From contig CAWIPU010000006.1 in the NCBI GenBank assembly GCA_963838115.1, positions 326,622 to 390,621 of the forward strand: a DNA stretch of 64,000 nucleotides, in the 5' to 3' direction. This document shows, in pieces, positions 945 to 24,514 of the stretch; the first letter of the stretch is position 1; the number at the start of each line of letters is the position of its first letter. The notes beneath the pieces were generated by a model. It was not told the DNA's origin and did not search any database. It saw only the letters and a program-made list of their open reading frames with translations. This DNA is from an uncultured Chloroflexia bacterium (GTDB taxonomy: Bacteria; Chloroflexota; Limnocylindria; Limnocylindrales; CSP1-4). The position numbers were made by a program, and so were the translations under genes.

Positions 945-1079
945 GCTTGAGTCTCCCATTTGGTAGGCGGCTATCCGGTTCGGTGGCTGGCTGCGGATGA
1001 AGAAGTGCGATCAGAGGTCGGGTTCCAGAGAAGACCCATTCCTCGGATCGCACCAGCATCTATCTAGCCGGCAAGCGCC

Positions 1080-1655: not shown

Positions 1656-1694
1656 TGCTTGGTTCCTCCTCAGGGTTGTGCGGGATGGAGACCC

Positions 1695-1731
1695 GTGTGG
1701 GGCTGGCCCGGGGGAAGGCCAGACCCCACAC
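1695..1731 (-). terminator. Hairpin downstream of the 1749-3044 gene
   Basis: GTGTGGGGCTGGCC ... GGCCAGACCCCACAC imperfect inverted repeat, 18 nt past the stop codon. There is no clear U-tail. Confidence 0.4.
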
Positions 1732-1748
1732 GAGTGTCCGGGGGAGTG

Positions 1749-3044: not shown

Positions 3045-3091
3045 GGGGGTTTGTTCCTTTCGAACGGGTCGCTTCTCAGCGAATTCGGAGA

Positions 3092-3131
3092 CCGGGCTGG
3101 TGATGTGGATGGAACCGCATCACCAGCCCGG
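3092..3131 (-). terminator. Hairpin downstream of the 3151-3897 gene
   Basis: Perfect 14-bp inverted repeat CCGGGCTGGTGATG / CATCACCAGCCCGG with a 12-nt loop, 20 nt past the stop codon. Confidence 0.5.
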
Positions 3132-3150
3132 TGGTGTCGTGGAGCCGCGG

Positions 3151-4100: not shown

Positions 4101-4150
4101 CTGTCTAATGCTTGTCAAGGGTTTGTGTCACGAAAGCGACATGCTATAGT
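4101..4150 (+). promoter_or_regulatory. Putative promoter of the carH-like gene, with three tandem 11-bp operator-like repeats
   Basis: cTGTCTAATGC / tTGTCAAGGGT / tTGTGTCACGA at 4101-4133, with TGT recurring every 11 bp (ACA on the opposite strand). They overlap a -35-like TTGTGT. An extended -10 TGCTATAGT lies at 4142-4150. The ATG at 4160 implies a nearly leaderless mRNA. Confidence 0.4.
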
Positions 4151-4159
4151 CGACAAAGC

Positions 4160-5077
4160 ATGTACAGCATCAAACAAGCATCGATCCGCTCCGGGGTAAG
4201 CATTCCCCTCATCCGTGCCTGGGAGCGCCGCTACGGCGTCGTCAGCCCCCAGCGCACCGCATCGGGCTATCGTCTGTACGACGACGACGCCATCTCAACG
4301 CTCGTGCGCGTGCGCGAGCTGACGGAGAGTGGCTGGACGGCGAGTGAGGCGAGTCGGGCTGTCCTGGCGGGGGAAGTCGCCATCGATCCGATGCCACCCC
4401 AGCTCCTGGTGACGTCTGGCGACGATGCCACCCGCCCTCACCAGATGGTGCTGATCGATCGGTTCAACGAAGCTGCCGTCGCCATGGATATCGCCGCCAT
4501 CGGCGCTGCCTTGGATGAGATGTTCGCGCAGGGCTCGTTCGAGTCCATCGTGGACGATCTGCTCATGCCCGCCTTGGTCGAGATCGGTCGTGCCTGGCAA
4601 GAAGGAAGGCTTGACGTCGCCGCCGAGCACACCGCGAGCGCAGCCGTCCATCGGCGTCTATCGGCACTGTATGAGGCGGCAGCCACCGTGGCAGACCCAC
4701 TCCTCGTCGTCGGACTCCCACCGGGGGCGCGGCATGAGTTGGGCTCACTGGCGTTCGCCGTGGCGGTACGTCGACTGGGCGTCGGGGTGCTGTACCTGGG
4801 AGCGGACGTCCCCGTCACGAGCTGGGTCCACGTCATCATGCAAAACCGTGCAAGGATGGCCGTCGTGGCCGTGGTACAGGAGGCCGACCGCATCGCTGCC
4901 CTCGAGGTGGCGAGGGCGCTGCGGGACGCTGGCCTGCGCCCCACTCTTGCCGTCGGCGGTGGAGGTGCGCGTTGGGAGGGAGCAGAGGAAGCCGGTATGG
5001 TGGTGCTTCCCGATCGCATCAACGAGGCTGCGGCGGTGGCCGCGCGATTGGCGCGGGAGGCCACGCCAGCCAGCTAG
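4160..5077 (+). CDS. MerR-family regulator with a C-terminal cobalamin-binding domain (CarH/LitR-type putative light sensor)
   Basis: N-terminal MerR HTH (MYSIKQASIRSGVSIPLIRAWERRYG). W-x9-EH motif (WQEGRLDVAAEH). B12-binding xHxxG motif (ARHELGSL), followed by YLGADVP and GGGG. Confidence 0.75.
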   Translation: MYSIKQASIRSGVSIPLIRAWERRYGVVSPQRTASGYRLYDDDAISTLVRVRELTESGWTASEASRAVLAGEVAIDPMPPQLLVTSGDDATRPHQMVLIDRFNEAAVAMDIAAIGAALDEMFAQGSFESIVDDLLMPALVEIGRAWQEGRLDVAAEHTASAAVHRRLSALYEAAATVADPLLVVGLPPGARHELGSLAFAVAVRRLGVGVLYLGADVPVTSWVHVIMQNRARMAVVAVVQEADRIAALEVARALRDAGLRPTLAVGGGGARWEGAEEAGMVVLPDRINEAAAVAARLAREATPAS

Positions 5078-5138
5078 ACGAGACCGGCCAGCTAGACGAG
5101 GGGGGACCCATGGGCTCGGCTTCACGGCGCGTCGATCG

Positions 5139-5906
5139 ATGAGCCTGCGGCTCACGATCCTCGGCGCATCGGCAGCTTGGACCGATCGTCCCTGCCGCCC
5201 ATCGTCGTGCTACCTCGTGGAGATCGGCAGCGAAGGCATCCTGCTTGACTTGGGCCAAGGTGCCTTGGGGTCGCTGTTCCCGCATCGTGACCCCTCCAGT
5301 CTGAACGCGGTCGTGATCAGCCACATGCACGGCGATCACCACGTGGATCTCATCCCGCTGCGCAATCTGCTCCGCTACGGCTATGACGAGCCGCGCCGCG
5401 TCGGCTTGCATGCCCCGGCGGGCCTACGTCATCGCTACGACGTCTTCAGCGGTGAAGACGGCTTCCTGGACATCCTCTTCGGTCCGGACCTGGTCGAAGG
5501 CACTCGCCGGACGGGGCGTTTCGACTTGCGAGCGCAACGCGTGACCCACTCGGGCCAGAGCTACGCCTTCCGGGTCAGCGACACGAACGATCCCGATGCT
5601 CCCGGCCTCGTCTACAGTGGCGACTGCGGCCGCGCGGATGAGCTGCTGCCGTTGATCCAAGAGGGTGACACCGTGCTTTGCGAAGCATTCTGGTCGACCC
5701 TCGAACCGATAGCTGGCGCCAACCACCTTGCCGCCGCGGATGCGGCTGATGTCGCCCGACGCGGAGGAGCTGCACACTTGATCCTGACCCACATCCTTGA
5801 GGCTCACGGTCCTCAAGCTGCGCTGCACGCGGCCGAGGGCATCTTCCCGGGCTCGGTCCAGCTGGCCGAGCCGGAGCTGGTCATTGAGATCGGACCTGGC
5901 CGATGA
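5139..5906 (+). CDS. MBL-fold metallo-hydrolase
   Basis: MSLRLTILGASAAW... with the HxHxDH motif (ISHMHGDHHVD). The long N-terminal extension of the ORF (from 4515) overlaps the carH-like gene in another frame and was discarded. Confidence 0.75.
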   Translation: MSLRLTILGASAAWTDRPCRPSSCYLVEIGSEGILLDLGQGALGSLFPHRDPSSLNAVVISHMHGDHHVDLIPLRNLLRYGYDEPRRVGLHAPAGLRHRYDVFSGEDGFLDILFGPDLVEGTRRTGRFDLRAQRVTHSGQSYAFRVSDTNDPDAPGLVYSGDCGRADELLPLIQEGDTVLCEAFWSTLEPIAGANHLAAADAADVARRGGAAHLILTHILEAHGPQAALHAAEGIFPGSVQLAEPELVIEIGPGR

Positions 5907-7592
5907 GTGCGCCCGGAACGACCGTGCTCTCGGTGCGGACGCGGATCCGTAGCCTGGTGGCTGAGGCATGGGCGCAGGCGACCGAATCGGGAGCGCTGCC
6001 AGCCATCGATGCAAAGCTCCGACCAGAGATCGAGATCGAACGACCATCCGATGCGGAGCATGGCGACCTGGCCGCGAACCTGGCCATGCGACTGGCGCGG
6101 CCGCTGCGACGCTCACCACTGCAGATCGCCGAGGTGCTGGCCGAGAGTCTGCGCTCCGTTGCCGCCGGTTCGGTCTTGACCGAAGTCCAGGTGGCACCGC
6201 CCGGCTTCATCAACATGCGCCTCTCCGCCGCGTGGCTGGAGAGCGTGCTCGATGAGGCTCGTGAGGCGGGAGATGCCTTCGGCCGAGTGACCCAGGAGCA
6301 GCCGCTCCATCTCAACATCGAGTTCGTCTCGGCCAACCCGACCGGCCCACTCCACGTCGGCAATGCTCGCGGTGCCTTTGTGGGGGACCTGTTGACGCGC
6401 GTGCTAGAGGGCGGCGGCCACACCGTTACGCGAGAGTACTACTTCAACGATTCAGGTACCCAGATCCGTCAACCTCGGTGCCTCGGTGGTCGCTCGACGG
6501 CTGGGCGAGGAGGTGCCCGAGGACGGATACCGCGGCGACTACGTCGAGGACCTCGCCGCCGAGCTGCCCCAAGACGTTTGGACCGCGGCCACCGCAGACG
6601 GCGCGGACCGCGACGGTATCGTCGCCGCGTGGGCCCAAGAGCGCGTCCGTGCCGGGATCGAGGAGAGCCTGGCTCGACTGGCTGTCCACTTCGACGTCTG
6701 GAAGAGCGAAGCCAGCCTGCACCGCGATGGCTGGGTCATGCGTGCCGTGGAACGACTGCAGGCTGGCGGCCACATCTTCGAGCAGGATGGCGCCACCTGG
6801 TTCCGCTCCACCACCTTCGGGGACGACAAGGACCGCGTGGTGTTCCGCTCGAATGGCGAACCCACGTACTTCGCGTCCGATATCGGCTACGTCAGCGAGA
6901 AGTTCAGTCGCGGCTTCGACCGGCTCATCTACATCTGGGGAGCCGATCATCACGGTACCGTCGCGCGCGTCCGTAACGCGGCTGAGGCGATGGGTTTCGA
7001 CAAGGACGCAGTGGAGATGCTGCTCGTAGCCTGGGTCCGGTTCGTGCGCGACGGCGTCGACGTCCCTATGAGCAAGCGCTCGGGCGAGTTCCTGGCGCTC
7101 GACGAGTTGCTCGAGGAGATCGGTGTGGATGCAGCGCGCTGGTCGTTCGCCTCGCGCGCGGCGAGTTCGCCCATCGATGTCGATATCGAGCTGGTCCGCA
7201 GGCAGTCCTCGGAGAACCCCGTTTACTACGTGCAGTACGCTCATGCCCGCATCAGCTCGATCCTGGCCAGGGCAGCCGCCGCCGGCCTGTCACCTGCGCC
7301 AAGCTTCAGCGGTGTGCTCCAGGGTGATGAGGTGGCCAGCGGCTTGGCACGCGAGGTGCTGCGCCTTCCGGAGGTCGTTGAGGACGGAGCCCGGGCCGAG
7401 GAGACACACGGCATCACCGCTTATGCCATGGAGTTGGCGACGACGTTCCACGCCTTTTATCGTGATCGCCGTGTCGTCGATCCTGACGACCCCGTGACCT
7501 CGGCCGGCCGACTGGCCCTCATGGGCGTGACGCGCAGTGCTATCCGCAACGCTCTGGCCTTGCTGGGCATCTCAGCTCCCGAATCGATGTAG
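5903..7592 (+). CDS. argS: Arginine--tRNA ligase, reading frame broken by a 1-nt frameshift near 6468-6472
   Basis: The N-terminal part (frame of 5903) carries the class I HIGH-type motif ANPTGPLHVGNARG and ends at ...YYFNDSGTQIR. The continuation NLGASVVARRLGEEV... through to YVQYAHARISSIL is in the frame of 6486. The start overlaps the upstream stop (ATGA). Confidence 0.85.
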
Positions 7593-7710: not shown

Positions 7711-10700
7711 TTACGGAGCAGCGATCTCGTCACCTAGGCCGAGCGCCTCAGCCACCGCGGCCAGTGCGGCATCGTCGCTGGTCAGCAGGACCAGCACCGG
7801 ATTGGACGCACCCGAAGACGCGTCCGCTTCAAGCACGGCGTGCGCGCCTGGCAGGTCCGCGATGACGGCGTTGGCGGCGTCGCCGAACCTACCGACGTTG
7901 CCCGCCTTGTCCCATTTGGTCTGCCAAACGATCGCCCATGATCCGTCGGGGCCATCGAGACTGACGAGTCGATCGCCACCCCAACCGGCAGCGGCCTTGT
8001 CGTCTCCGAGCCAAACCGCGGTCCGGAGCTCACCCATGGTTTGCTGCCACTGTTCGCTCCAGCCCTGGCCGAGCGCGTTGCCGATCCCGTCCAACACAAG
8101 GGACGTGGGCCGGTCGTCGGGATAGCGCTTGGGGTGAAGGATCTGCTCGGTCGTCTCGGGCACCCTGTCCCAAGCGCCGTTCACCGCATCCCAGCCGCCC
8201 TTATTGCGGAGGAAGTCAACGAACGACTGGCCCTCGACGAAGGGGAACGCGTACTCGCGCTGCAGCAGCTGCGGCATGGACCTCAGGATGCCTCCGTCGC
8301 CAGGGACCACCACGCCATCCACCTTGGCCTGATTGCCCGAGTTCACGTTCTGAGCGGACCAAGCGAGCATCGTGGCCGTGCCATCACCTTCTTCGAGCGC
8401 GGAAGCGGCGAGCACGGCATCGGCGTCGGTGGGTTCATCGACGACAGCGGCGTCGGCACCGAACGCCTGGTGTACGGCGGCCTGGCCGAACTCGCGAGCG
8501 GCCTCGGCGCGCTGCGGCAAGTTGAGCTTGTCGATGTCTCGGAGGATGGACTGGCGACCACGAGACTGGAGGTACGTGATCGGGAGATCCTGCCCATAGA
8601 GCTGGTCGAGGAGGGAGGCGAGATCATCATCGTTTCCGAGCAGCCCCATGCGCTTGAGAGCCTGTTCCTCCTGGGTCAGCGTGGATGATGGATAGAGGTT
8701 GTCGGCGGCCTGCCTGAGGAAGTCCGCCTGCTCGGCCGAACTGGCGCCGTCGTATGGGGTATTGCCCAGGTCCAACTGGCGGATCTCGGGCACCGTGAAG
8801 GCAACCGCATCCAACTGGTCGGCCACCTGCGCATTATCTAGGGAACCGCCATCGCCCCGAGGCTCGATCACCGGGCCCAGTGACACGACGTAGTCAACGC
8901 CACTGCCCTTGTCCAGCTCGGTTTCTGCAGGTGGATCCTGGCTGGTGACGATGCCAGCCGCGGCCGAGTCGTTGGCCTCGGCGCGCTCGCCAGGCTTCAA
9001 GCCCGCCGATGTAAGTGCATCGAGTGCATCGGCCTCGGGGAGACCGGTCACGTCGGGCACGCTGACCTGCTTGGGGCCGCGGCTGACGATGAGCGTCACC
9101 TCGGCGCCGACCTCGACGGTCTTGCCCGCGGCCGGTTCGGTCTTGACGGCGTCACCCGCGGCGACCTTGCCGTTGGTGCGTTCGTCGATGCTGACCGCGA
9201 GACCCTGCTCCTTGAGCGCGGCCTCGGCGTCGGCGGCCGACTGGCCGGCCACGTCGGGGATGTCGACCGCGGGCGGGCCGGAGCTGACGGTGAGATCCAC
9301 CGTGCTGCCCTGGTCCACCGAGCCGTCGGCTTCGGGATCCTGGGAGAGGACGGTGCCGGCGGCGGCAGCGGCCTCGGCCTTGCTGGTCTGGCCCGGCTTG
9401 AGCCCGGCGTCCTTGATGGCGGCCTTGGCATCGGCCTCGGGGAGACCGGTCACGTCGGGCACGCTGACCTGCTTGGGGCCGCGGCTGACGATGAGCGTCA
9501 CCTCGGCGCCGACCTCGACGGTCTTGCCCGCGGCCGGTTCGGTCTTGACGGCGTCACCCGCGGCGACCTTGCCGTTGGTGCGTTCGTCGATGCTGACCGC
9601 GAGACCCTGCTCCTTGAGCGCGGCCTCGGCGTCGGCGGCCGACTGGCCGGCCACGTCGGGGATGTCGACCGCGGGCGGGCCGGAGCTGACGGTGAGATCC
9701 ACCGTGCTGCCCTGGTCCACCGAGCCGTCGGCTTCGGGATCCTGGGAGAGGACGGTGCCGGCGGCGGCAGCGGCCTCGGCCTTGCTGGTCTGGCCCGGCT
9801 TGAGCCCGGCGTCCTTGATGGCGGCCTTGGCATCGGCCTCGGGGAGACCGGTCACGTCGGGCACGCTGACCTGCTTGGGGCCGCGGCTGACGATGAGCGT
9901 CACCTCGGCGCCGACCTCGACGGTCTTGCCCGCGGCCGGTTCGGTCTTGACGGCGTCACCCGCGGCGACCTTGCCGTTGGTGCGTTCGTCGATGCTGACC
10001 GCGAGACCCTGCTCCTTGAGCGCGGCCTCGGCGTCGGCGGCCGACTGGCCGGCCACGTCGGGGATGTCGACCGCGGGCGGGCCGGAGCTGACGGTGAGAT
10101 CCACCGTGCTGCCCTGGTCCACCGAGCCGTCGGCTTCGGGATCCTGGGAGAGGACGGTGCCGGCGGCGGCAGCGGCCTCGGCCTTGCTGGTCTGGCCCGG
10201 CTTGAGCCCGGCGTCCTTGATGGCGGCCTTGGCATCGGCCTCGGGGAGACCGGTCACGTCGGGCACGCTGACCTGCTTGGGGCCGCGGCTGACGATGAGC
10301 GTCACCTCGGCGCCGACCTCGACGGTCTTGCCCGCGGCCGGTTCGGTCTTGACGGCGTCACCCGCGGCGACCTTGCCGTTGGTGCGTTCGTCGATGCTGA
10401 CCGCGAGACCCTGCTCCTTGAGCGCGGCCTCGGCGTCGGCGGCCGACTGGCCGGCCACGTCGGGGATGTCGACCGCGGGCGGGCCGGAGCTGACGGTGAG
10501 ATCCACCGTGCTGCCCTGGTCCACCGAGCCGTCGGCTTCGGGATCCTGGGAGAGGACGGTGCCGGCGGCGGCAGCGGCCTCGGCCTTGCTGGTCTGGCCC
10601 GGCTTGAGCCCGGCGTCCTTGATGGCGGCCTTGGCATCGGCCTCGGGGAGACCGGTCACGTCGGGCACGCTGACCTGCTTGGGGCCGCGGCTGACGATGA

Positions 10701-13700
10701 GCGTCACCTCGGCGCCGACCTCGACGGTCTTGCCCGCGGCCGGTTCGGTCTTGACGGCGTCACCCGCGGCGACCTTGCCGTTGGTGCGTTCGTCGATGCT
10801 GACCGCGAGACCCTGCTCCTTGAGCGCGGCCTCGGCGTCGGCGGCCGACTGGCCGGCCACGTCGGGGATGTCGACCGCGGGCGGGCCGGAGCTGACGGTG
10901 AGATCCACCGTGCTGCCCTGGTCCACCGAGCCGTCGGCTTCGGGATCCTGGGAGAGGACGGTGCCGGCGGCGGCAGCGGCCTCGGCCTTGCTGGTCTGGC
11001 CCGGCTTGAGCCCGGCGTCCTTGATGGCGGCCTTGGCATCGGCCTCGGGGAGACCGGTCACGTCGGGCACGCTGACCTGCTTGGGGCCGCGGCTGACGAT
11101 GAGCGTCACCTCGGCGCCGACCTCGACGGTCTTGCCCGCGGCCGGTTCGGTCTTGACGGCGTCACCCGCGGCGACCTTGCCGTTGGTGCGTTCGTCGATG
11201 CTGACCGCGAGACCCTGCTCCTTGAGCGCGGCCTCGGCGTCGGCGGCCGACTGGCCGGCCACGTCGGGGATGTCGACCGCGGGCGGGCCGGAGCTGACGG
11301 TGAGATCCACCGTGCTGCCCTGGTCCACCGAGCCGTCGGCTTCGGGATCCTGGGAGAGGACGGTGCCGGCGGCGGCAGCGGCCTCGGCCTTGCTGGTCTG
11401 GCCCGGCTTGAGCCCGGCGTCCTTGATGGCGGCCTTGGCATCGGCCTCGGGGAGACCGGTCACGTCGGGCACGCTGACCTGCTTGGGGCCGCGGCTGACG
11501 ATGAGCGTCACCTCGGCGCCGACCTCGACGGTCTTGCCCGCGGCCGGTTCGGTCTTGACGGCGTCACCCGCGGCGACCTTGCCGTTGGTGCGTTCGTCGA
11601 TGCTGACCGCGAGACCCTGCTCCTTGAGCGCGGCCTCGGCGTCGGCGGCCGACTGGCCGGCCACGTCGGGGATGGTGCGCATGTTCGAACCTGTCGATAG
11701 GATCAGCCTCAAGGAGGAGTCAAGTGGAACCACAGAGCCCGCAGCGGGTTCGGTCTTGACGGCCTTACCCGCGTCGATCTTCTCCTGCGACTGTTCGACG
11801 GTTTCGCCGACGGTCAAGCCCGCGGACTCGATAGCTGCGACTGCGTCGGCTTGGGATAGATCACGGACATCAGGAACATCGACGTTGGGCGTGACGCCGT
11901 CGCTCCTGACATAGGCGACCGCGGAGCCCCGGGGCACCTCGGTGCCGGCGGCGGGATCGGAGCTGATGACATCGCCCGCGGGGACGCTGTCGCTGTAGGC
12001 GCTCGTGACCTCACCGACGCTGAGCCCGGCGTCGCTGAGCGTCTGCTCGGCGTCGGCGGCGGGACCCGCGAGGTCGGGCACGGCCACGGTGGGCACGGGC
12101 ACGGCCACCTGCAGGCTCACCGTGGAGCCCACGGGCAGCTCGGTGTCGGGGGCGGGGTCCTGGTCGAGGATGGTGTCGGGGGCGGCCGCGTCGGTCTCGC
12201 GGGACTGGGTCTCGAGGCCGAGACCGGCGGAATCGGCGGCGTCCTGCGCCGCGGCCAGGGTCAGGCCCACGAAGTCGGGGGTGGCCACGGTCTCCACGCC
12301 GTCGCTCCTGACATAGGCGACCGCGGAGCCCCGGGGCACCTCGGTGCCGGCGGCGGGATCGGAGCTGATGACATCGCCCGCGGGGACGCTGTCGCTGTAG
12401 GCGCTCGTGACCTCACCGACGCTGAGCCCGGCGTCGCTGAGCGTCTGCTCGGCGTCGGCGGCGGGACCCGCGAGGTCGGGCACGGCCACGGTGGGCACGG
12501 GCACGGCCACCTGCAGGCTCACCGTGGAGCCCACGGGCAGCTCGGTGTCGGGGGCGGGGTCCTGGTCGAGGATGGTGTCGGGGGCGGCCGCGTCGGTCTC
12601 GCGGGACTGGGTCTCGAGGCCGAGACCGGCGGAATTGGCGGCGTCCTGCGCCGCGGCCAGGGTCAGGCCCACGAAGTCGGGGGTGGCCACGGTCTCCACG
12701 CCGTCGCTCCTGACATAGGCGACCGCGGAGCCCCGGGGCACCTCGGTGCCGGCGGCGGGATCGGAGCTGATGACATCGCCCGCGGGGACGCTGTCGCTGT
12801 AGGCGCTCGTGACCTCACCGACGCTGAGCCCGGCGTCGCTGAGCGTCTGCTCGGCGTCGGCGGCGGGACCCGCGAGGTCGGGCACGGCCACGGTGGGCAC
12901 GGGCACGGCCACCTGCAGGCTCACCGTGGAGCCCACGGGCAGCTCGGTGTCGGGGGCGGGGTCCTGGTCGAGGATGGTGTCGGGGGCGGCCGCGTCGGTC
13001 TCGCGGGACTGGGTCTCGAGGCCGAGACCGGCGGAATCGGCGGCGTCCTGCGCCGCGGCCAGGGTCAGGCCCACGAAGTCGGGGGTGGCCACGGTCTCCA
13101 CGCCGTCGCTCCTGACATAGGCGACCGCGGAGCCCCGGGGCACCTCGGTGCCGGCGGCGGGATCGGAGCTGATGACATCGCCCGCGGGGACGCTGTCGCT
13201 GTAGGCGCTCGTGACCTCACCGACGCTGAGCCCGGCGTCGCTGAGCGTCTGCTCGGCGTCGGCGGCGGGACCCGCGAGGTCGGGCACGGCCACGGTGGGC
13301 ACGGGCACGGCCACCTGCAGGCTCACCGTGGAGCCCACGGGCAGCTCGGTGTCGGGGGCGGGGTCCTGGTCGAGGATGGTGTCGGGGGCGGCCGCGTCGG
13401 TCTCGCGGGACTGGGTCTCGAGGCCGAGACCGGCGGAATCGGCGGCGTCCTGCGCCGCGGCCAGGGTCAGGCCCACGAAGTCGGGGGTGGCCACGGTCTC
13501 CACGCCGTCGCTCCTGACATAGGCGACCGCGGAGCCCCGGGGCACCTCGGTGCCGGCGGCGGGATCGGAGCTGATGACATCGCCCGCGGGGACGCTGTCG
13601 CTGTAGGCGCTCGTGACCTCACCGACGCTGAGCCCGGCGTCGCTGAGCGTCTGCTCGGCGTCGGCGGCGGGACCCGCGAGGTCGGGCACGGCCACGGTGG

Positions 13701-16700
13701 GCACGGGCACGGCCACCTGCAGGCTCACCGTGGAGCCCACGGGCAGCTCGGTGTCGGGGGCGGGGTCCTGGTCGAGGATGGTGTCGGGGGCGGCCGCGTC
13801 GGTCTCGCGGGACTGGGTCTCGAGGCCGAGACCGGCGGAATTGGCGGCGTCCTGCGCCGCGGCCAGGGTCAGGCCCACGAAGTCGGGGGTGGCCACGGTC
13901 TCCACGCCGTCGCTCCTGACATAGGCGACCGCGGAGCCCCGGGGCACCTCGGTGCCGGCGGCGGGATCGGAGCTGATGACATCGCCCGCGGGGACGCTGT
14001 CGCTGTAGGCGCTCGTGACCTCACCGACGCTGAGCCCGGCGTCGCTGAGCGTCTGCTCGGCGTCGGCGGCGGGACCCGCGAGGTCGGGCACGGCCACGGT
14101 GGGCACGGGCACGGCCACCTGCAGGCTCACCGTGGAGCCCACGGGCAGCTCGGTGTCGGGGGCGGGGTCCTGGTCGAGGATGGTGTCGGGGGCGGCCGCG
14201 TCGGTCTCGCGGGACTGGGTCTCGAGGCCGAGACCGGCGGAATTGGCGGCGTCCTGCGCCGCGGCCAGGGTCAGGCCCACGAAGTCGGGGGTGGCCACGG
14301 TCTCCACGCCGTCGCTCCTGACATAGGCGACCGCGGAGCCCCGGGGCACCTCGGTGCCGGCGGCGGGATCGGAGCTGATGACATCGCCCGCGGGGACGCT
14401 GTCGCTGTAGGCGCTCGTGACCTCACCGACGCTGAGCCCGGCGTCGCTGAGCGTCTGCTCGGCGTCGGCGGCGGGACCCGCGAGGTCGGGCACGGCCACG
14501 GTGGGCACGGGCACGGCCACCTGCAGGCTCACCGTGGAGCCCACGGGCAGCTCGGTGTCGGGGGCGGGGTCCTGGTCGAGGATGGTGTCGGGGGCGGCCG
14601 CGTCGGTCTCGCGGGACTGGGTCTCGAGGCCGAGACCGGCGGAATTGGCGGCGTCCTGCGCCGCGGCCAGGGTCAGGCCCACGAAGTCGGGGGTGGCCAC
14701 GGTCTCCACGCCGTCGCTCCTGACATAGGCGACCGCGGAGCCCCGGGGCACCTCGGTGCCGGCGGCGGGATCGGAGCTGATGACATCGCCCGCGGGGACG
14801 CTGTCGCTGTAGGCGCTCGTGACCTCACCGACGCTGAGCCCGGCGTCGCTGAGCGTCTGCTCGGCGTCGGCGGCGGGACCCGCGAGGTCGGGCACGGCCA
14901 CGGTGGGCACGGGCACGGCCACCTGCAGGCTCACCGTGGAGCCCACGGGCAGCTCGGTGTCGGGGGCGGGGTCCTGGTCGAGGATGGTGTCGGGGGCGGC
15001 CGCGTCGGTCTCGCGGGACTGGGTCTCGAGGCCGAGACCGGCGGAATCGGCGGCGTCCTGCGCCGCGGCCAGGGTCAGGCCCACGAAGTCGGGGGTGGCC
15101 ACGGTCTCCACGCCGTCGCTCCTGACATAGGCGACCGCGGAGCCCCGGGGCACCTCGGTGCCGGCGGCGGGATCGGAGCTGATGACATCGCCCGCGGGGA
15201 CGCTGTCGCTGTAGGCGCTCGTGACCTCACCGACGCTGAGCCCGGCGTCGCTGAGCGTCTGCTCGGCGTCGGCGGCGGGACCCGCGAGGTCGGGCACGGC
15301 CACGGTGGGCACGGGCACGGCCACCTGCAGGCTCACCGTGGAGCCCACGGGCAGCTCGGTGTCGGGGGCGGGGTCCTGGTCGAGGATGGTGTCGGGGGCG
15401 GCCGCGTCGGTCTCGCGGGACTGGGTCTCGAGGCCGAGACCGGCGGAATCGGCGGCGTCCTGCGCCGCGGCCAGGGTCAGGCCCACGAAGTCGGGGGTGG
15501 CCACGGTCTCCACGCCGTCGCTCCTGACATAGGCGACCGCGGAGCCCCGGGGCACCTCGGTGCCGGCGGCGGGATCGGAGCTGATGACATCGCCCGCGGG
15601 GACGCTGTCGCTGTAGGCGCTCGTGACCTCACCGACGCTGAGCCCGGCGTCGCTGAGCGTCTGCTCGGCGTCGGCGGCGGGACCCGCGAGGTCGGGCACG
15701 GCCACGGTGGGCACGGGCACGGCCACCTGCAGGCTCACCGTGGAGCCCACGGGCAGCTCGGTGTCGGGGGCGGGGTCCTGGTCGAGGATGGTGTCGGGGG
15801 CGGCCGCGTCGGTCTCGCGGGACTGGGTCTCGAGGCCGAGACCGGCGGAATTGGCGGCGTCCTGCGCCGCGGCCAGGGTCAGGCCCACGAAGTCGGGGGT
15901 GGCCACGGTCTCCACGCCGTCGCTCCTGACATAGGCGACCGCGGAGCCCCGGGGCACCTCGGTGCCGGCGGCGGGATCGGAGCTGATGACATCGCCCGCG
16001 GGGACGCTGTCGCTGTAGGCGCTCGTGACCTCACCGACGCTGAGCCCGGCGTCGCTGAGCGTCTGCTCGGCGTCGGCGGCGGGACCCGCGAGGTCGGGCA
16101 CGGCCACGGTGGGCACGGGCACGGCCACCTGCAGGCTCACCGTGGAGCCCACGGGCAGCTCGGTGTCGGGGGCGGGGTCCTGGTCGAGGATGGTGTCGGG
16201 GGCGGCCGCGTCGGTCTCGCGGGACTGGGTCTCGAGGCCGAGACCGGCGGAATCGGCGGCGTCCTGCGCCGCGGCCAGGGTCAGGCCCACGAAGTCGGGG
16301 GTGGCCACGGTCTCCACGCCGTCGCTCCTGACATAGGCGACCGCGGAGCCCCGGGGCACCTCGGTGCCGGCGGCGGGATCGGAGCTGATGACATCGCCCG
16401 CGGGGACGCTGTCGCTGTAGGCGCTCGTGACCTCACCGACGCTGAGCCCGGCGTCGCTGAGCGTCTGCTCGGCGTCGGCGGCGGGACCCGCGAGGTCGGG
16501 CACGGCCACGGTGGGCACGGGCACGGCCACCTGCAGGCTCACCGTGGAGCCCACGGGCAGCTCGGTGTCGGGGGCGGGGTCCTGGTCGAGGATGGTGTCG
16601 GGGGCGGCCGCGTCGGTCTCGCGGGACTGGGTCTCGAGGCCGAGACCGGCGGAATCGGCGGCGTCCTGCGCCGCGGCCAGGGTCAGGCCCACGAAGTCGG

Positions 16701-19119
16701 GGGTGGCCACGGTCTCCACGCCGTCGCTCCTGACATAGGCGACCGCGGAGCCCCGGGGCACCTCGGTGCCGGCGGCGGGATCGGAGCTGATGACATCGCC
16801 CGCGGGGACGCTGTCGCTGTAGGCGCTCGTGACCTCACCGACGCTGAGCCCGGCGTCGCTGAGCGTCTGCTCGGCGTCGGCGGCGGGACCCGCGAGGTCG
16901 GGCACGGCCACGGTGGGCACGGGCACGGCCACCTGCAGGCTCACCGTGGAGCCCACGGGCAGCTCGGTGTCGGGGGCGGGGTCCTGGTCGAGGATGGTGT
17001 CGGGGGCGGCCGCGTCGGTCTCGCGGGACTGGGTCTCGAGGCCGAGACCGGCGGAATCGGCGGCGTCCTGCGCCGCGGCCAGGGTCAGGCCCACGAAGTC
17101 GGGGGTGGCCACGGTCTCCACGCCGTCGCTCCTGACATAGGCGACCGCGGAGCCCCGGGGCACCTCGGTGCCGGCGGCGGGATCGGAGCTGATGACATCG
17201 CCCGCGGGGACGCTGTCGCTGTAGGCGCTCGTGACCTCACCGACGCTGAGCCCGGCGTCGCTGAGCGTCTGCTCGGCGTCGGCGGCGGGACCCGCGAGGT
17301 CGGGCACGGCCACGGTGGGCACGGGCACGGCCACCTGCAGGCTCACCGTGGAGCCCACGGGCAGCTCGGTGTCGGGGGCGGGGTCCTGGTCGAGGATGGT
17401 GTCGGGGGCGGCCGCGTCGGTCTCGCGGGACTGGGTCTCGAGGCCGAGACCGGCGGAATCGGCGGCGTCCTGCGCCGCGGCCAGGGTCAGGCCCACGAAG
17501 TCGGGGGTGGCCACGGTCTCCACGCCGTCGCTCCTGACATAGGCGACCGCGGAGCCCCGGGGCACCTCGGTGCCGGCGGCGGGATCGGAGCTGATGACAT
17601 CGCCCGCGGGGACGCTGTCGCTGTAGGCGCTCGTGACCTCACCGACGCTGAGCCCGGCGTCGCTGAGCGTCTGCTCGGCGTCGGCGGCGGGACCCGCGAG
17701 GTCGGGCACGGCCACCGGCTCGGGACCGAGCGAAAGGACATAGTCCACCGCGGAACCGGGATCGACCTCGGCATCGGCGGCGGGATCGGAGCTGATGACG
17801 TGACCCGCCACGATGCTGTCATCGGTAGCCTCGCTGACGTCGCCGGGCACGAGGCCGGCATCATCGAGGGCGGCCAGGGCGTCGGCCTCCGGGAGGTCGA
17901 TGAGGTCGGGCACGGCCACCGGCTCGGGACCGAGCGAAAGGACATAGTCCACCGCGGAACCGGGATCGACCTCGGCATCGGCGGCGGGATCGGAGCTGAT
18001 GACGTGACCCGCCACGATGCTGTCATCGGTAGCCTCGCTGACGTCGCCGGGCACGAGGCCGGCATCATCGAGGGCGGCCAGGGCGTCGGCCTCCGGGAGG
18101 TCGATGAGGTCGGGCACGGCCACCGGCTCGGGACCGCTGCTCACGACGAGCGCGATCCTGCTGGCGGGCGCCAACTCGGCATCGGCTTTGGGGTCGGTGC
18201 TGATGACGATAGCGGCCTCGACAGTGTCGCTGGACTCCTCGGTGATCGCACCCACCCTGAAGCCAGCGTCCCGGATGTCCTTGACTGCGTCGTCCTGGGA
18301 GAGTCCCACCACGTCGGGCACTAAGTCGGTAGGAACAGCGGCGGCAACGGAGAGTTCGATCGTGGAGCCGACCTCCACCGCCTCACCTGGCGGGGGATCT
18401 TGGCCGACGACGGTGTCAGGCTCGACCTGGTCGGTCTCCACCTGATTGACACGGACGACGAGTCCGTAGTCATCTGCTGTAGCTTCCGCGTTCGCCAGCG
18501 TCAAGCCCTGGAAGTTGGGCGTATCGACGGAAGCGATCGCGGATGGTTCGGCGCTAGGCACCTCGGTCACGACCGGCGATGGCGACAGGCTCGCGTCGAC
18601 ATCAGTCGGTGAGTCGAACGGACGCAACACGATGAGCACGATGGCTAGTGCCACGATGAATGCACCTACGAGGATGCCGCCGACCAGCAGGACAGGCGTG
18701 CCCTCCTCGGGTGGCTCACCGCCATCACCGGAAGGCAGGATCGGGGGCTCGAGCGTCATCTCAGGCTTGGCGGCCAGAGCGGCGAGGGCGGCTTCGGTAG
18801 CCTCCGGGTCGGGCGCGACGGGCGTGGTCGTCCAAGCGGCTCCAGCAGCAGCGGCGTCAGCTGCCTCGGCGTCGGTCTCGGCGACGGTGCCTGTGGCTGC
18901 CTCGTCCTCGTCGGTATTCGCCTCGACCTCAGTCTCGGCGTCCACGGCTTCGTCGGCTTCAGCATCGTCGCTGGGTTCGGCGCCCACATCCTCAGCAATT
19001 GGTGAGGCCGCGAATTCTGGCTGCTCTGGGGTCGACTCGGCATCTTCAGGTCGGGGCGAGGTCGGGGAAGCGTCTGTGGACGGTGTGAGGTCGCCGGGAT
19101 CCGGCTTCTGATCAGTCAT
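7711..19119 (-). CDS. Giant single-pass membrane protein (3802 aa) with about 48 PASTA domains and a C-terminal degenerate metallopeptidase-like domain
   Basis: Uninterrupted 11,409-nt ORF. Acidic low-complexity N-terminus of about 145 aa. One TM helix (VLLVGGILVGAFIVALAIVLIVL). Repeated units of about 67 aa fit the PASTA pattern (VPDxxGxxxxxAxxxLxxAGLxxG...GxVIxxxPxAGxxVxxGSxVxL). The last ~390 aa are homologous to the neighbouring 19261-20649 product. Confidence 0.9.
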   Translation of the reverse strand: MTDQKPDPGDLTPSTDASPTSPRPEDAESTPEQPEFAASPIAEDVGAEPSDDAEADEAVDAETEVEANTDEDEAATGTVAETDAEAADAAAAGAAWTTTPVAPDPEATEAALAALAAKPEMTLEPPILPSGDGGEPPEEGTPVLLVGGILVGAFIVALAIVLIVLRPFDSPTDVDASLSPSPVVTEVPSAEPSAIASVDTPNFQGLTLANAEATADDYGLVVRVNQVETDQVEPDTVVGQDPPPGEAVEVGSTIELSVAAAVPTDLVPDVVGLSQDDAVKDIRDAGFRVGAITEESSDTVEAAIVISTDPKADAELAPASRIALVVSSGPEPVAVPDLIDLPEADALAALDDAGLVPGDVSEATDDSIVAGHVISSDPAADAEVDPGSAVDYVLSLGPEPVAVPDLIDLPEADALAALDDAGLVPGDVSEATDDSIVAGHVISSDPAADAEVDPGSAVDYVLSLGPEPVAVPDLAGPAADAEQTLSDAGLSVGEVTSAYSDSVPAGDVISSDPAAGTEVPRGSAVAYVRSDGVETVATPDFVGLTLAAAQDAADSAGLGLETQSRETDAAAPDTILDQDPAPDTELPVGSTVSLQVAVPVPTVAVPDLAGPAADAEQTLSDAGLSVGEVTSAYSDSVPAGDVISSDPAAGTEVPRGSAVAYVRSDGVETVATPDFVGLTLAAAQDAADSAGLGLETQSRETDAAAPDTILDQDPAPDTELPVGSTVSLQVAVPVPTVAVPDLAGPAADAEQTLSDAGLSVGEVTSAYSDSVPAGDVISSDPAAGTEVPRGSAVAYVRSDGVETVATPDFVGLTLAAAQDAADSAGLGLETQSRETDAAAPDTILDQDPAPDTELPVGSTVSLQVAVPVPTVAVPDLAGPAADAEQTLSDAGLSVGEVTSAYSDSVPAGDVISSDPAAGTEVPRGSAVAYVRSDGVETVATPDFVGLTLAAAQDAADSAGLGLETQSRETDAAAPDTILDQDPAPDTELPVGSTVSLQVAVPVPTVAVPDLAGPAADAEQTLSDAGLSVGEVTSAYSDSVPAGDVISSDPAAGTEVPRGSAVAYVRSDGVETVATPDFVGLTLAAAQDAANSAGLGLETQSRETDAAAPDTILDQDPAPDTELPVGSTVSLQVAVPVPTVAVPDLAGPAADAEQTLSDAGLSVGEVTSAYSDSVPAGDVISSDPAAGTEVPRGSAVAYVRSDGVETVATPDFVGLTLAAAQDAADSAGLGLETQSRETDAAAPDTILDQDPAPDTELPVGSTVSLQVAVPVPTVAVPDLAGPAADAEQTLSDAGLSVGEVTSAYSDSVPAGDVISSDPAAGTEVPRGSAVAYVRSDGVETVATPDFVGLTLAAAQDAADSAGLGLETQSRETDAAAPDTILDQDPAPDTELPVGSTVSLQVAVPVPTVAVPDLAGPAADAEQTLSDAGLSVGEVTSAYSDSVPAGDVISSDPAAGTEVPRGSAVAYVRSDGVETVATPDFVGLTLAAAQDAANSAGLGLETQSRETDAAAPDTILDQDPAPDTELPVGSTVSLQVAVPVPTVAVPDLAGPAADAEQTLSDAGLSVGEVTSAYSDSVPAGDVISSDPAAGTEVPRGSAVAYVRSDGVETVATPDFVGLTLAAAQDAANSAGLGLETQSRETDAAAPDTILDQDPAPDTELPVGSTVSLQVAVPVPTVAVPDLAGPAADAEQTLSDAGLSVGEVTSAYSDSVPAGDVISSDPAAGTEVPRGSAVAYVRSDGVETVATPDFVGLTLAAAQDAANSAGLGLETQSRETDAAAPDTILDQDPAPDTELPVGSTVSLQVAVPVPTVAVPDLAGPAADAEQTLSDAGLSVGEVTSAYSDSVPAGDVISSDPAAGTEVPRGSAVAYVRSDGVETVATPDFVGLTLAAAQDAADSAGLGLETQSRETDAAAPDTILDQDPAPDTELPVGSTVSLQVAVPVPTVAVPDLAGPAADAEQTLSDAGLSVGEVTSAYSDSVPAGDVISSDPAAGTEVPRGSAVAYVRSDGVETVATPDFVGLTLAAAQDAADSAGLGLETQSRETDAAAPDTILDQDPAPDTELPVGSTVSLQVAVPVPTVAVPDLAGPAADAEQTLSDAGLSVGEVTSAYSDSVPAGDVISSDPAAGTEVPRGSAVAYVRSDGVETVATPDFVGLTLAAAQDAANSAGLGLETQSRETDAAAPDTILDQDPAPDTELPVGSTVSLQVAVPVPTVAVPDLAGPAADAEQTLSDAGLSVGEVTSAYSDSVPAGDVISSDPAAGTEVPRGSAVAYVRSDGVETVATPDFVGLTLAAAQDAADSAGLGLETQSRETDAAAPDTILDQDPAPDTELPVGSTVSLQVAVPVPTVAVPDLAGPAADAEQTLSDAGLSVGEVTSAYSDSVPAGDVISSDPAAGTEVPRGSAVAYVRSDGVTPNVDVPDVRDLSQADAVAAIESAGLTVGETVEQSQEKIDAGKAVKTEPAAGSVVPLDSSLRLILSTGSNMRTIPDVAGQSAADAEAALKEQGLAVSIDERTNGKVAAGDAVKTEPAAGKTVEVGAEVTLIVSRGPKQVSVPDVTGLPEADAKAAIKDAGLKPGQTSKAEAAAAAGTVLSQDPEADGSVDQGSTVDLTVSSGPPAVDIPDVAGQSAADAEAALKEQGLAVSIDERTNGKVAAGDAVKTEPAAGKTVEVGAEVTLIVSRGPKQVSVPDVTGLPEADAKAAIKDAGLKPGQTSKAEAAAAAGTVLSQDPEADGSVDQGSTVDLTVSSGPPAVDIPDVAGQSAADAEAALKEQGLAVSIDERTNGKVAAGDAVKTEPAAGKTVEVGAEVTLIVSRGPKQVSVPDVTGLPEADAKAAIKDAGLKPGQTSKAEAAAAAGTVLSQDPEADGSVDQGSTVDLTVSSGPPAVDIPDVAGQSAADAEAALKEQGLAVSIDERTNGKVAAGDAVKTEPAAGKTVEVGAEVTLIVSRGPKQVSVPDVTGLPEADAKAAIKDAGLKPGQTSKAEAAAAAGTVLSQDPEADGSVDQGSTVDLTVSSGPPAVDIPDVAGQSAADAEAALKEQGLAVSIDERTNGKVAAGDAVKTEPAAGKTVEVGAEVTLIVSRGPKQVSVPDVTGLPEADAKAAIKDAGLKPGQTSKAEAAAAAGTVLSQDPEADGSVDQGSTVDLTVSSGPPAVDIPDVAGQSAADAEAALKEQGLAVSIDERTNGKVAAGDAVKTEPAAGKTVEVGAEVTLIVSRGPKQVSVPDVTGLPEADAKAAIKDAGLKPGQTSKAEAAAAAGTVLSQDPEADGSVDQGSTVDLTVSSGPPAVDIPDVAGQSAADAEAALKEQGLAVSIDERTNGKVAAGDAVKTEPAAGKTVEVGAEVTLIVSRGPKQVSVPDVTGLPEADALDALTSAGLKPGERAEANDSAAAGIVTSQDPPAETELDKGSGVDYVVSLGPVIEPRGDGGSLDNAQVADQLDAVAFTVPEIRQLDLGNTPYDGASSAEQADFLRQAADNLYPSSTLTQEEQALKRMGLLGNDDDLASLLDQLYGQDLPITYLQSRGRQSILRDIDKLNLPQRAEAAREFGQAAVHQAFGADAAVVDEPTDADAVLAASALEEGDGTATMLAWSAQNVNSGNQAKVDGVVVPGDGGILRSMPQLLQREYAFPFVEGQSFVDFLRNKGGWDAVNGAWDRVPETTEQILHPKRYPDDRPTSLVLDGIGNALGQGWSEQWQQTMGELRTAVWLGDDKAAAGWGGDRLVSLDGPDGSWAIVWQTKWDKAGNVGRFGDAANAVIADLPGAHAVLEADASSGASNPVLVLLTSDDAALAAVAEALGLGDEIAAP
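9026..11674 (-). repeat. Tandem array B: 402-bp unit (di-PASTA, 134 aa), about 6.6 copies, in frame inside the giant gene
   Basis: Period 402 is visible in the sequence and in the six identical antisense ORFs at 9096, 9498, ... 11106. I saw no substitutions between copies. Confidence 0.9.
11894..17715 (-). repeat. Tandem array A: 402-bp unit (di-PASTA, 134 aa), about 14.5 copies, in frame inside the giant gene
   Basis: Period 402 (14 identical antisense ORFs at 12005 ... 17231). The only variable site seen is at 12234+402k (c/t on the + strand), giving AADSAG versus AANSAG. Confidence 0.9.
17701..18135 (-). repeat. Tandem array C: 204-bp unit (single PASTA, 68 aa), about 2.1 copies
   Basis: 17701-17904 is identical to 17905-18108, and a third copy begins at 18109. 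Confidence 0.85.
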
Positions 19120-19260: not shown

Positions 19261-20649
19261 TCAGAGGCCGAGCGCCACCTCAAGGGCACCCAATGTCTCC
19301 TCACTGTCGGCCACCAGAATGAGTACTGGAGAGGATAGACCTCCGACGATATCGGCATCGGTCACGGAGTGCGCACCGGGCAAATCCTTCATGGCATCCT
19401 GCGCGGCTTGGTGGAACTCCTTCTGGTCGGCCTCGGTGTCCCAGTCGCTCTGCCAGACCACGGCCCAGGCACCACCAGGACCATCGAGGCTCACCAGCCG
19501 GTCACCGCCCCAGCCGGCCGCCGCGGAGGCATTCGGCAACTGTCCGGGCAGGCCTGGGAACAACGACTGGCGCTTGTCGCCATCTGCCACCCACACGCCG
19601 ACCTGCATCTCGCCGAGGGTCTGCTGGTAGCTGGTGGACCAGTCTGGACCGAGCGACGCAGCGACTTCGGGCAGGACGATCTCGACGGGCACCTCATCGG
19701 GATACAGCTCTGGGTGCAGGATCTGCTCGGTCGAAACCGGCTGCGCATCCCACGCCTGGTCGACCGCGGCCCAGTCACCTCGACCACGGAGCGCCATCAC
19801 ATACGCGTAACCGTCGATATAGGGGAACTCAAGCTGTCGCTGCAGGATCATGGGCATACGGCTGAGCGTCTTTTGGTCCTGCTTGGTGAGCGACTGTGCC
19901 GCGACTCGTAGCAGATCGGTCAGCTTGAGCTCACGAGTCGCCCAGTCGTACATCACCGCGGTGGCGTCGCCTTCGATGAGTGCCTGTTGGGCGAGGATGG
20001 CGTCGGAGCGATCGAGATCATCGATACGCTGGCCCTCCAGGTCCCACTGGGCATCCTGCAGCGCATGGTCATATTCATGCGCGACGACGATGGACTCCAG
20101 CGCCCCGATCTTGTCGATGGGACCGATGAGCGAGAACGTCTTGGTCAGTGGGTCATAGTAGGCCAACACCTGGCTGTCATAGATGGCGAGGATGAGCTCC
20201 TCAAGGTCGTCATCCGGCCCCAGGAGACCAAGGCGCGTGAAGGCCGCGTCCTCGGCTTGGACAGCGGCGTCGCTGTACTCAGCACGGAACAGGGCGCGCA
20301 GTTCACTGCGGAAGGCCTGGCTGTCGATGACGCGATAGGCGACGTCCTCGGCCGGCGGCAACCCACGTACCGGGTGGACCCCGCCGATGATCTGGCCGAC
20401 CTTCTTGACCATCTTGGAGTCGAACCCATCCGGCAGCGGTGCCGCCACCGCCGCGAGGCTGGCCTGGGGCGACTGCGAAGCGTCCTGAGCGCTGGCTGGC
20501 CCGAGGCCGAAGGACGCCAGCAGCACGATCGACACGAGTGCGGCCGACAGGGCGAAGCGGTTGCCAGGACGCGGGTGTGGAGCGTGATACGTCGATGCCA
20601 TAGGAGTGCATTCTGCCAGTACGACGCGACTAACACCATCGAAGGCCAT
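19261..20649 (-). CDS. Secreted or membrane-anchored HExxH-motif protein (putative zinc metallopeptidase), paralogue of the giant protein's C-terminal domain
   Basis: Hydrophobic N-terminal segment FALSAALVSIVLLASFGLGPASA. HEYDH motif followed by IEGDA. Clear similarity along its length to residues ~3410-3802 of the giant protein (shared blocks include GLLGxDDDL, EQILHP, AAGWGGDRLVSLDGP and DLPGAH). An alternative start is at 20601. Confidence 0.8.
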   Translation of the reverse strand: MAFDGVSRVVLAECTPMASTYHAPHPRPGNRFALSAALVSIVLLASFGLGPASAQDASQSPQASLAAVAAPLPDGFDSKMVKKVGQIIGGVHPVRGLPPAEDVAYRVIDSQAFRSELRALFRAEYSDAAVQAEDAAFTRLGLLGPDDDLEELILAIYDSQVLAYYDPLTKTFSLIGPIDKIGALESIVVAHEYDHALQDAQWDLEGQRIDDLDRSDAILAQQALIEGDATAVMYDWATRELKLTDLLRVAAQSLTKQDQKTLSRMPMILQRQLEFPYIDGYAYVMALRGRGDWAAVDQAWDAQPVSTEQILHPELYPDEVPVEIVLPEVAASLGPDWSTSYQQTLGEMQVGVWVADGDKRQSLFPGLPGQLPNASAAAGWGGDRLVSLDGPGGAWAVVWQSDWDTEADQKEFHQAAQDAMKDLPGAHSVTDADIVGGLSSPVLILVADSEETLGALEVALGL

Positions 20650-24238: not shown

Positions 24239-24399
<161 letters not shown>

Positions 24400-24514
24400 A
24401 CCGCCGACCTCGTGTCGGCCGCTGGTCGCACTTGGAGCGCGAAGGCCCGTAGACCGGGAATGCGTACTCCCCTTCACTTGCGGTACCTCGATGGTGTGGC
24501 TGGAGGTCATACCG

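Follow-up and report, generated by a model that had tools for sequence, protein, structure and literature searches.

What would a chain of 48 PASTA domains do with no enzyme attached to it? The question was raised by one gene, called the giant gene here, on a 64,000-nucleotide stretch of DNA (the window; positions 326,622 to 390,621 of contig CAWIPU010000006.1, assembly GCA_963838115.1) from an uncultured Chloroflexia bacterium of the order Limnocylindrales. The usual account of PASTA domains is that they are short tails by which cell-wall kinases and penicillin-binding proteins sense or are localised. The giant gene was found to belong to a conserved gene family in which 30–48 PASTA units are carried with no enzyme attached, and its product ends in a globular domain (the tip) that is probably a catalytically dead paralogue of a zincin-like protein encoded upstream. 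An even chance, roughly, was given to the interpretation that the giant protein is a periscope-type, length-variable surface stalk in which the dead zincin-like head would serve to bind a ligand or as a docking point for the secreted active paralogue.

The giant gene was identified as a single open reading frame (ORF; Table 1). Its N-terminal sequence, MTDQKPDPGD, was kept in orthologues, and its third-position guanine-cytosine (GC) content of 0.89 (genome GC 65%) fits a coding frame. Long ORFs on the opposite strand (e.g., 8909..11914) are by-products of the stop-free repeats. PF03793 (PASTA) matched the protein in 48 stretches with 2000 bits (Pfam cut-off 23.2); in the Pfam scan of the giant protein only PASTA was above threshold, and no kinase or transpeptidase family was reported. 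The match to NCBIfam PknB_PASTA_kin was confined to the PASTA part of the profile (positions 362-563), and that to NCBIfam spoVD_pbp to the PASTA end of its profile. The protein contained 0 cysteines in 3802 residues and carried a net charge of about -470. An earlier reading of the window, made by a model from the sequence only, had described one uninterrupted 11.4-kb ORF encoding an acidic low-complexity head, a single transmembrane helix, about 48 PASTA units and a non-repeat tail of about 390 residues, with no kinase or transpeptidase module. All of these points were borne out, PF03793 having been the check proposed there and the tail measuring 384 residues.

Individual units were placed with an own hidden Markov model (HMM) built from five of the units. 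The 48 units lay back to back from residue 198 to residue 3418 in the order A B C C (D E)x14 D' H I (J K)x6 L, which is identical to the layout of 2 + 2 + 29 + 1 + 13 + 1 units counted in the sequence-only reading. Tandem Repeats Finder returned 402 bp x 14.5 (11894-17715, 99% matches), 402 bp x 6.6 (9026-11674, 100% matches) and 204 bp x 2.2 (17698-18136). Across the 14 full copies of array A, one nucleotide varied (G/A, giving D/N), and it did so without periodicity. DNA identity was complete among the 6 full copies of array B and between the 2 copies of array C; for such 100%-identical arrays, the sequence alone is no proof of the exact copy number.

Table 1. Features of the giant gene and its surroundings in the window, and PASTA unit counts at related loci (L numbers) in other assemblies.
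Feature	Position in window	Strand	Residues	Remarks
Giant ORF	7711..19119	(-)	3802 aa + stop codon	ATG start, one uninterrupted frame
Predicted cytoplasmic head	18694..19119	(-)	1-142	Acidic, low-complexity, net charge -35
Juxtamembrane motif AAWTTTPVAPDPEATEAALAALAAKPEMTLEPP	18742..18840	(-)	94-126	33 residues, with TTTP cluster
Single hydrophobic transmembrane helix	18622..18696	(-)	~142-166	Taken as signal-anchor, N terminus inside
PASTA units 1-2, types A and B	18124..18528	(-)	198-332	Each unique in giant protein
Array C	17716..18123	(-)	333-468	Two identical 68-aa PASTA units
Array A	11887..17715	(-)	469-2411	29 PASTA units, 14.5 copies of a 402-bp two-unit repeat
Unit H	11680..11886	(-)	2412-2480	Single PASTA unit between arrays
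Array B	9067..11679	(-)	2481-3351	13 PASTA units, 6.5 copies of a second 402-bp two-unit repeat
Unit L	8866..9066	(-)	3352-3418	Last, divergent PASTA unit, abutting tip domain
Tip domain, DUF8575 (PF26686) / Hvo_1808-like	7714..8865	(-)	3419-3802	384 aa, metal motif lost
R3542-E-F-G-Q3546 at HExxH position	8482..8496	(-)	3542-3546	Located by alignments
Upstream paralogue	19261..20649	(-)	462-aa ORF	Secreted DUF8575/Hvo_1808-like putative zinc metalloprotease
ABC transporter operon, ATPase	24275-25282	(+)		
ABC transporter operon, permease	25279-26061	(+)		
ABC transporter operon, NMT1/THI5-like binding protein	26086-27117	(+)		
Related locus L001				~37 PASTA units
Related locus L002				34 PASTA units
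Related locus L004				35 PASTA units
Related locus L006			3226 aa	38 PASTA units, intact ORF
Related locus L009			2621 aa	30 PASTA units, intact ORF
Related locus L010				Roughly 38-41 PASTA units, many frameshifts
Related locus L083				44 PASTA units
Related locus L084				~36 PASTA units

Relatives of the giant gene were taken from fetched contigs of homologues, one genome per species was scanned, and a search with the N-terminal region was then performed. Nine related loci were obtained (L001; L002, on the same contig as L008; L003/L005, a pair of contigs from one metagenome-assembled genome (MAG); L004; L006; L009; L010; L083; L084), and their PASTA units were counted by six-frame scans. 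Apart from L006 and L009, the giant orthologues carried a few frameshifts each. The sole short-read MAG (L003, L005) had the gene cut inside the arrays at both contig ends, as is expected of true repeats. Most of the nine loci lie in Nanopore MAGs; the 'MFD' MAGs stem from soils and sediments of Denmark that were sequenced deeply by Nanopore (PMC12313526). Gene order was conserved (metallo-beta-lactamase (MBL) fold, DUF8575, giant, argS, MBL, CarH-like regulator, two DUF4397, fasciclin), and the wider surroundings were those of an ordinary chromosome (dnaB, rplI, dinB). Since arrays of 30-44 units occur in this gene in nine relatives that were assembled independently, the long array is real; the giant protein is likewise real and conserved, and not an assembly artefact. 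Long-read metagenomes thus recover genes of this kind, which short-read assemblies systematically break.

A homology search with the tip domain returned 458 homologues, most of them already annotated with PF26686 (DUF8575). The tip was well conserved (55-67% identity); its closest homologues in the search were 52-67% identical, bore the name 'PASTA domain-containing protein' and came from Chloroflexota or Candidatus Limnocylindrales MAGs, many of them partial and on short contigs. The best relative in the genome collection was 62% identical, and a closer one (L083) was recovered in the N-terminal search. Against NCBIfam Hvo_1808 the tip scored 91.6 bits (E 6e-26), below the equivalog cut-off of 200. 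Most DUF8575 members carry a gluzincin-type site composed of HExxH and a downstream Glu; in the giant's tip the HExxH was replaced and the downstream EGD was kept. The DUF8575 family was widespread in Chloroflexota and was also present in Planctomycetota, Verrucomicrobiota and Myxococcota MAGs. No mention of DUF8575 was found in the literature searched, and Hvo_1808 is known only as a haloarchaeal lipoprotein that served as a model substrate.

Directly upstream of the giant gene, on the same strand and after a gap of 141 bp, a paralogue of the tip was found (39% identity, E 1e-74; 149.9 bits against Hvo_1808). Its likely start is M17, at 20601, and its N terminus is signal-peptide-like. It carried HEYDH (20065-20079) and a downstream EGDAT, which together form a gluzincin-type metal-site pattern. 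The paralogue was located directly upstream of the giant gene in 9/9 related loci, with HEYxHALQD in 9/9, while the tip carried AARE[FL][GD][RQ] in 8 loci (the L010 motif was obscured by frameshifts). The same substitution across loci indicates that loss of the metal ligands is old and has been maintained. By their motifs, the active-motif and putatively dead copies travel together as a conserved pair. The tip is, as judged from these motifs, probably a catalytically dead paralogue of the upstream zincin-like protein, and this relationship is probably the key to function. The sequence-only reading was correct in calling the C-terminal domain non-repetitive; it had overlooked the kinship with DUF8575/Hvo_1808, the lost HExxH and the paired upstream paralogue, as well as the amplification of different PASTA unit types in different species. 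Promoter and terminator scans at both ends of the two genes gave nothing useful.

Three further Limnocylindrales contigs (P0045, P0060, P0072) encoded 1-4 PASTA units, with Pro/Thr/Glu-rich linkers between them, fused to a DUF8575 domain in which HExxH was present. This clade suggests that the fusion of PASTA to DUF8575 is older than the inactivation, and it may represent the ancestral active form.

The tip was modelled with AlphaFold2 at high confidence (predicted local distance difference test (pLDDT) 95.1, predicted template modelling score (pTM) 0.93), with a helical N-terminal part and an alpha/beta C-terminal part. When PDB chains were searched with the tip by sequence and by profile, no hit had an E below 0.8 (best 3cmn, a putative hydrolase), and Foldseek with the tip model against the PDB gave no match at E <= 0.001. 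Foldseek matches to a TiME/PknH-sensor domain (target-normalised template modelling score (TM-score) ~0.39) and to an M1 peptidase (E 1.2) were weak and were not used.

The PASTA ectodomains of kinases are linear and modular (PMC3601408). A model of four units (residues 469-736; AlphaFold2) was obtained with pLDDT 95.5 and pTM 0.62 and had a helix and strands in each unit. It matched the Staphylococcus aureus PrkC ectodomain (3py9) with E 4.6e-16 and TM-scores of 0.62/0.60, and three PASTA domains of PrkC (3m9g) with a target-normalised TM-score of 0.72 and a root-mean-square deviation (rmsd) of 4.1 A over 203 columns. The model was superposed over three consecutive domains of linear PrkC, and PASTA 2-4 of PknB (5e12, 2kui) were matched as well. 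A single unit was matched to PASTA 3 of PknB (3ouv) with a target-normalised TM-score of 0.84 and an rmsd of 1.4 A, and the modelled units had the PASTA fold of one helix packed on a three-stranded sheet. When the compact pair of PBP2x was compared with the four-unit model, one domain fitted (rmsd ~16 A). Structure prediction followed by Foldseek had been proposed as a check in the sequence-only reading; its outcome was a resemblance of the units to linear PrkC/PknB, and a tip with no significant PDB match. One PASTA unit adds ~3-3.5 nm in PknB/PrkC structures. If extended likewise, the full 48-unit array would be predicted to reach roughly 150 nm, or several wall thicknesses.

Comparison of the orthologues indicated how the array has evolved. 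About 12 unit types were shared in the same order, as a scaffold. Every orthologue opened with unit A, after which came a 'VAVPDLxDLPEAD' type, a 'VAVPDLxGPA' type, the single H, then a repeat of two units close to the tip, and finally a divergent unit. Unit H was single-copy also in L003, L006, L009, L083 and L084. Which unit had been amplified differed: the C type was present in 22 copies in L006 (22 x 204 bp), 4 in L009 and 2 in the window, the D type in 16 copies in L009 (16 x 198 bp), and the D-E and J-K two-unit repeats were amplified in the window and L083. Amplified copies were DNA-identical (99.9-100%) within the window, L006 and L009. The sister species represented by L083 shared ~85% nucleotide identity with the window across 16.7 kb that took in both genic and flanking DNA. 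Both arrays were present in it at a lower copy number (44 units in all vs 48), its orthologous units being only 76-91% identical to those of the window. Copies that are identical within a genome and 76-91% identical between sister species indicate concerted evolution with rapid turnover of copy number. The fifth PASTA unit of L083 (~11.2-11.4 kb) was a chimera, C-type in its first two thirds and D-type in its last third, which is a footprint of unequal recombination between unit types. Because totals stayed at 30-48 whichever unit was amplified, selection would act on length and not on specific binding sites; a common scaffold on which each lineage has amplified a different unit likewise points to length selection rather than selection for a particular unit.

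To place the giant protein among other multi-PASTA proteins, a profile of its units was searched against 1.84 billion representative proteins. This search gave 48,929 matches, and the figures below are from the best 150. By the own HMM, 91 of these had at least 10 units, 15 at least 20 and 3 at least 30, with a maximum of 32; the 48 units of the window protein were the largest count encountered. A Hanks kinase motif was found in 0 of the best 150 and DUF8575 in 0 of the top 70. Some arrays were made of identical units and others were fully diverged. Outside PASTA, these proteins carried Big_9/cadherin/PKD/dockerin, LamG with Big_7, InlB-type B repeats or beta-helix parts. The architecture is not unique: at least 91 kinase-less clusters with 10-32 PASTA units are present in public metagenomes. 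Judged by their domain composition, proteins with a long PASTA array and no kinase turn up repeatedly in surface-protein-like settings. The possibility that these representatives are fragments of the giant's own family was rejected, given the lack of DUF8575 in the top 70 and the unrelated surface modules of several. A 3298-aa protein of a Planctomycetota MAG (P0123) had 30 PASTA units interleaved with three copies of a ~311-aa domain, and its C terminus held a related 372-aa segment; a scan of this C-terminal segment gave no Pfam match, and all of these parts were rich in GGWD-like motifs. This is a distinct multi-PASTA architecture and is likewise undescribed. For the giant's architecture, and for kinase-less proteins with 10 or more PASTA units at large, no description was found in literature on PASTA combined with Chloroflexi, stalk, adhesin or giant proteins, and the statement of the sequence-only reading that it has no described function stands for the literature searched.

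At the N-terminal end, the length and sequence of the acidic head varied among orthologues, its two ends excepted. The juxtamembrane motif was nearly invariant in the window, L002, L004, L006 and L009; judged from its sequence, the TTTP cluster is a candidate site of phosphorylation or docking. To our knowledge, PASTA domains are extracytoplasmic in all characterised proteins. From this, and from the signal peptide on the paralogue of the tip, we infer an N-in topology.

Under the stalk interpretation the giant protein would be single-pass, with its N terminus in the cell and, outside, a strongly acidic, cysteine-free rod of 48 PASTA domains ending in the globular tip. The PASTA array would serve mainly as a spacer, and its length would be reset quickly by recombination between repeats of 198-402 bp that are identical in DNA. 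As functional head, the tip's dead protease domain may bind a ligand without cleaving it, may dock the secreted active paralogue and so hold the enzyme at a set distance from the cell, or may do both. These elements, that is the topology, the length of ~150 nm, the spacer role and the binding or docking at the tip, are what we infer from the combined evidence. Of the criteria of periscope proteins, rod-like repeats are represented in the giant protein by the four-unit prediction that resembles linear PrkC; as to an anchor with a functional domain at the far end, the protein has an N-terminal transmembrane helix and a conserved C-terminal globular domain, and no LPXTG. The idea of a fibre-like structure in place of a sensor, put forward in the sequence-only reading, was supported indirectly, by the linear four-unit model, by DNA-identical repeats of variable number, by lineage-specific amplification of units, and by the adhesin-type modules on other multi-PASTA proteins.

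Several points weigh against the stalk interpretation. Pfam reported no adhesive family on the giant protein, and neither a wall-sorting signal nor LPXTG was present. The variation in unit number seen here is between species and not between strains. Consensus polishing of the long-read assemblies may in part have made the repeats look more alike than they are. The flanks of the transmembrane helix do not clearly follow the positive-inside rule, the N-side being acidic and the C-side having one Arg. The 'zincin-like' label of the tip rests on the motif and on family membership, with no significant neighbour among solved structures. Finally, muropeptides or lipid II are ligands of the kinases' PASTA domains, and by analogy the array could bind wall material instead of being an inert spacer.

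This last point leads to an explanation that was considered unlikely but survives best among the alternatives, namely that the giant protein is a multivalent peptidoglycan binder or a wall-embedded ruler in which each unit binds a muropeptide or nascent glycan, so that the protein would run inside or alongside the wall, tether the membrane to the sacculus or set envelope thickness. Muropeptides are ligands of the PASTA domains in PrkC, PknB and StkP. According to PMC5786024, which cites Zucchini et al., the PASTA repeats of StkP control how thick the septal wall becomes, and their number reportedly has an influence. All 48 units of the giant protein are bona fide PASTA domains, and its membrane anchor is like that of the PASTA kinases. 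But the extended chain would be several-fold longer than the thickness of any known wall, and some PASTA domains, such as those of PonA2, are known not to bind muropeptides. The amplified unit differs by species and diverges freely in a sister species, unlike conserved ligand sites, and a wall binder would leave the conserved distal globular domain and the paired active paralogue unexplained.

Descent from a PASTA kinase, with a role as sensor or signalling scaffold, was thought improbable; here the ectodomain would sense ligands of the wall or the environment, and the juxtamembrane motif (AAWTTTPVAP...) would recruit a separate kinase or be phosphorylated by one. The 33-residue TTTP-bearing cytoplasmic motif beside the transmembrane helix is nearly invariant in a head that otherwise varies, and in PASTA kinases the juxtamembrane regions have a function and undergo phosphorylation (PMC12077195). 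However, the giant protein has no kinase domain, and when a kinase-linked ancestor was sought with a query of the juxtamembrane region, transmembrane helix and first unit, only 12 orthologue fragments and no kinase-linked relative were returned. The conserved neighbourhood contains no kinase or phosphatase gene, and sensing needs neither 30-48 units nor a rapid turnover of copy number. An assembly artefact or decaying pseudogene, with the array inflated from a shorter gene or the ORF unexpressed, was dismissed as highly improbable: the arrays are 100% identical and of a copy number that is hard to assemble, several giant orthologues are broken by frameshifts, and the neighbouring essential gene argS is frameshifted in the window, so that indel errors or real decay do occur, but nine independent related assemblies have 30-44 units at the same locus (intact in L006 and L009), the related long-read MAGs come from deep Nanopore data (PMC12313526), the short-read contigs of L003 and L005 end inside the arrays as true repeats would, a non-periodic single-nucleotide variant was resolved among the array A copies, and the 11.4-kb frame is open with a third-position GC of 0.89.

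A wider proposal is offered only tentatively: extracellular stalks made of tandem PASTA arrays may be a general class, so far unrecognised, among uncultivated members of Chloroflexota, Planctomycetota and further phyla. In the giant's family the stalk would be a ~100-170 nm genetically tunable tether that keeps a pair of dead and active zincins at a defined distance from the cell, with the pseudo-enzyme at the end of the rod positioning an extracellular protease complex. If the arrays are stalks, the functional repertoire of PASTA widens to a structural building block besides a wall-sensing module. DUF8575 would also gain a first functional handle, with an active secreted enzyme and a dead tethered copy.

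Other genes of the window were annotated in passing. On the far side of the giant gene, argS (5903-7592, (+)) was split into two overlapping ORFs in different frames (5903-6976 and 6486-7592), with the frameshift located within ~6474-6514; in L001 and L002 it was a single gene of ~563 aa. Either the assembly of the window has an indel error at this point, or an essential gene is truly damaged. A CarH-like MerR regulator with B12-binding domains (4112-5077, (+)) was followed by a gene of the metallo-beta-lactamase fold (~5100-5906, (+)), and this pair adjoined argS in related loci too. Four secreted-looking genes were found at 426-3897 (-), comprising two fasciclin genes (426-959, 1080-1655) and two DUF4397 genes (1749-3044, 3151-3897); the position of the DUF4397 pair and of one fasciclin gene relative to the giant gene was kept in L001 and L002. 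This cluster may be part of a cell-surface gene neighbourhood. A flavin mononucleotide (FMN) riboswitch (RF00050; 24241-24395, (+); 74.9 bits) was placed directly before an ATP-binding cassette (ABC) transporter operon, an arrangement that suggests flavin-regulated uptake. A 602-aa ORF with an AAA_22 domain (33416-35224, (+)) and a 480-aa ORF (35394-36836, (+)) were located at and beside the lowest GC of the window (0.597, dip at 36-38 kb).

The giant protein was finally compared with known systems. Class B penicillin-binding proteins (PBP2x, S. aureus PBP1) have PASTA outside the membrane as the giant does, but the giant has no transpeptidase, and the compact pair of PBP2x is a misfit. PASTA kinases (PknB, PrkC/Stk1, StkP, IreK) share with it a single-pass, N-in anchor and head-to-tail, linker-free PASTA domains in a linear arrangement, the orientation and the arrangement both being predicted in the giant. 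They differ in having a Hanks kinase domain where the giant has its 142-aa acidic head, and in having 3-5 units and not 48; the giant, unlike them, has DNA-identical repeat units and a distal DUF8575 domain. DUF8575/Hvo_1808 proteins are homologous to the tip and to the upstream gene, and what sets the giant's copy apart is RExxQ at the HExxH position and its fusion to 48 PASTA domains.

Fibrillar adhesins (PMC8286594) resemble the giant in having a stalk of many domains (proposed in the giant) and a terminal globular domain, but their adhesive domain is a recognised one, whereas the giant's tip is no known adhesive domain; PASTA was not among the stalk families named in the text and part of the supplement of that paper. 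Likewise, PASTA was not mentioned in the text and part of the supplements of the periscope-protein paper (PMC8201768). Periscope proteins (SasG, Rib, Sgo_0707/SHIRT) share with the giant near-identical DNA repeats in variable number, a rod (predicted in the giant) and a non-repeat domain distal to the anchor. The giant, unlike them, has an N-terminal transmembrane anchor instead of a C-terminal LPXTG, and its head is hence C-terminal. Periscope hosts are host-associated Firmicutes, whereas the giant's host is an uncultured soil Chloroflexota; if PASTA arrays are stalks, a new repeat type and a new phylum would be added to the concept of periscope and fibrillar surface proteins.

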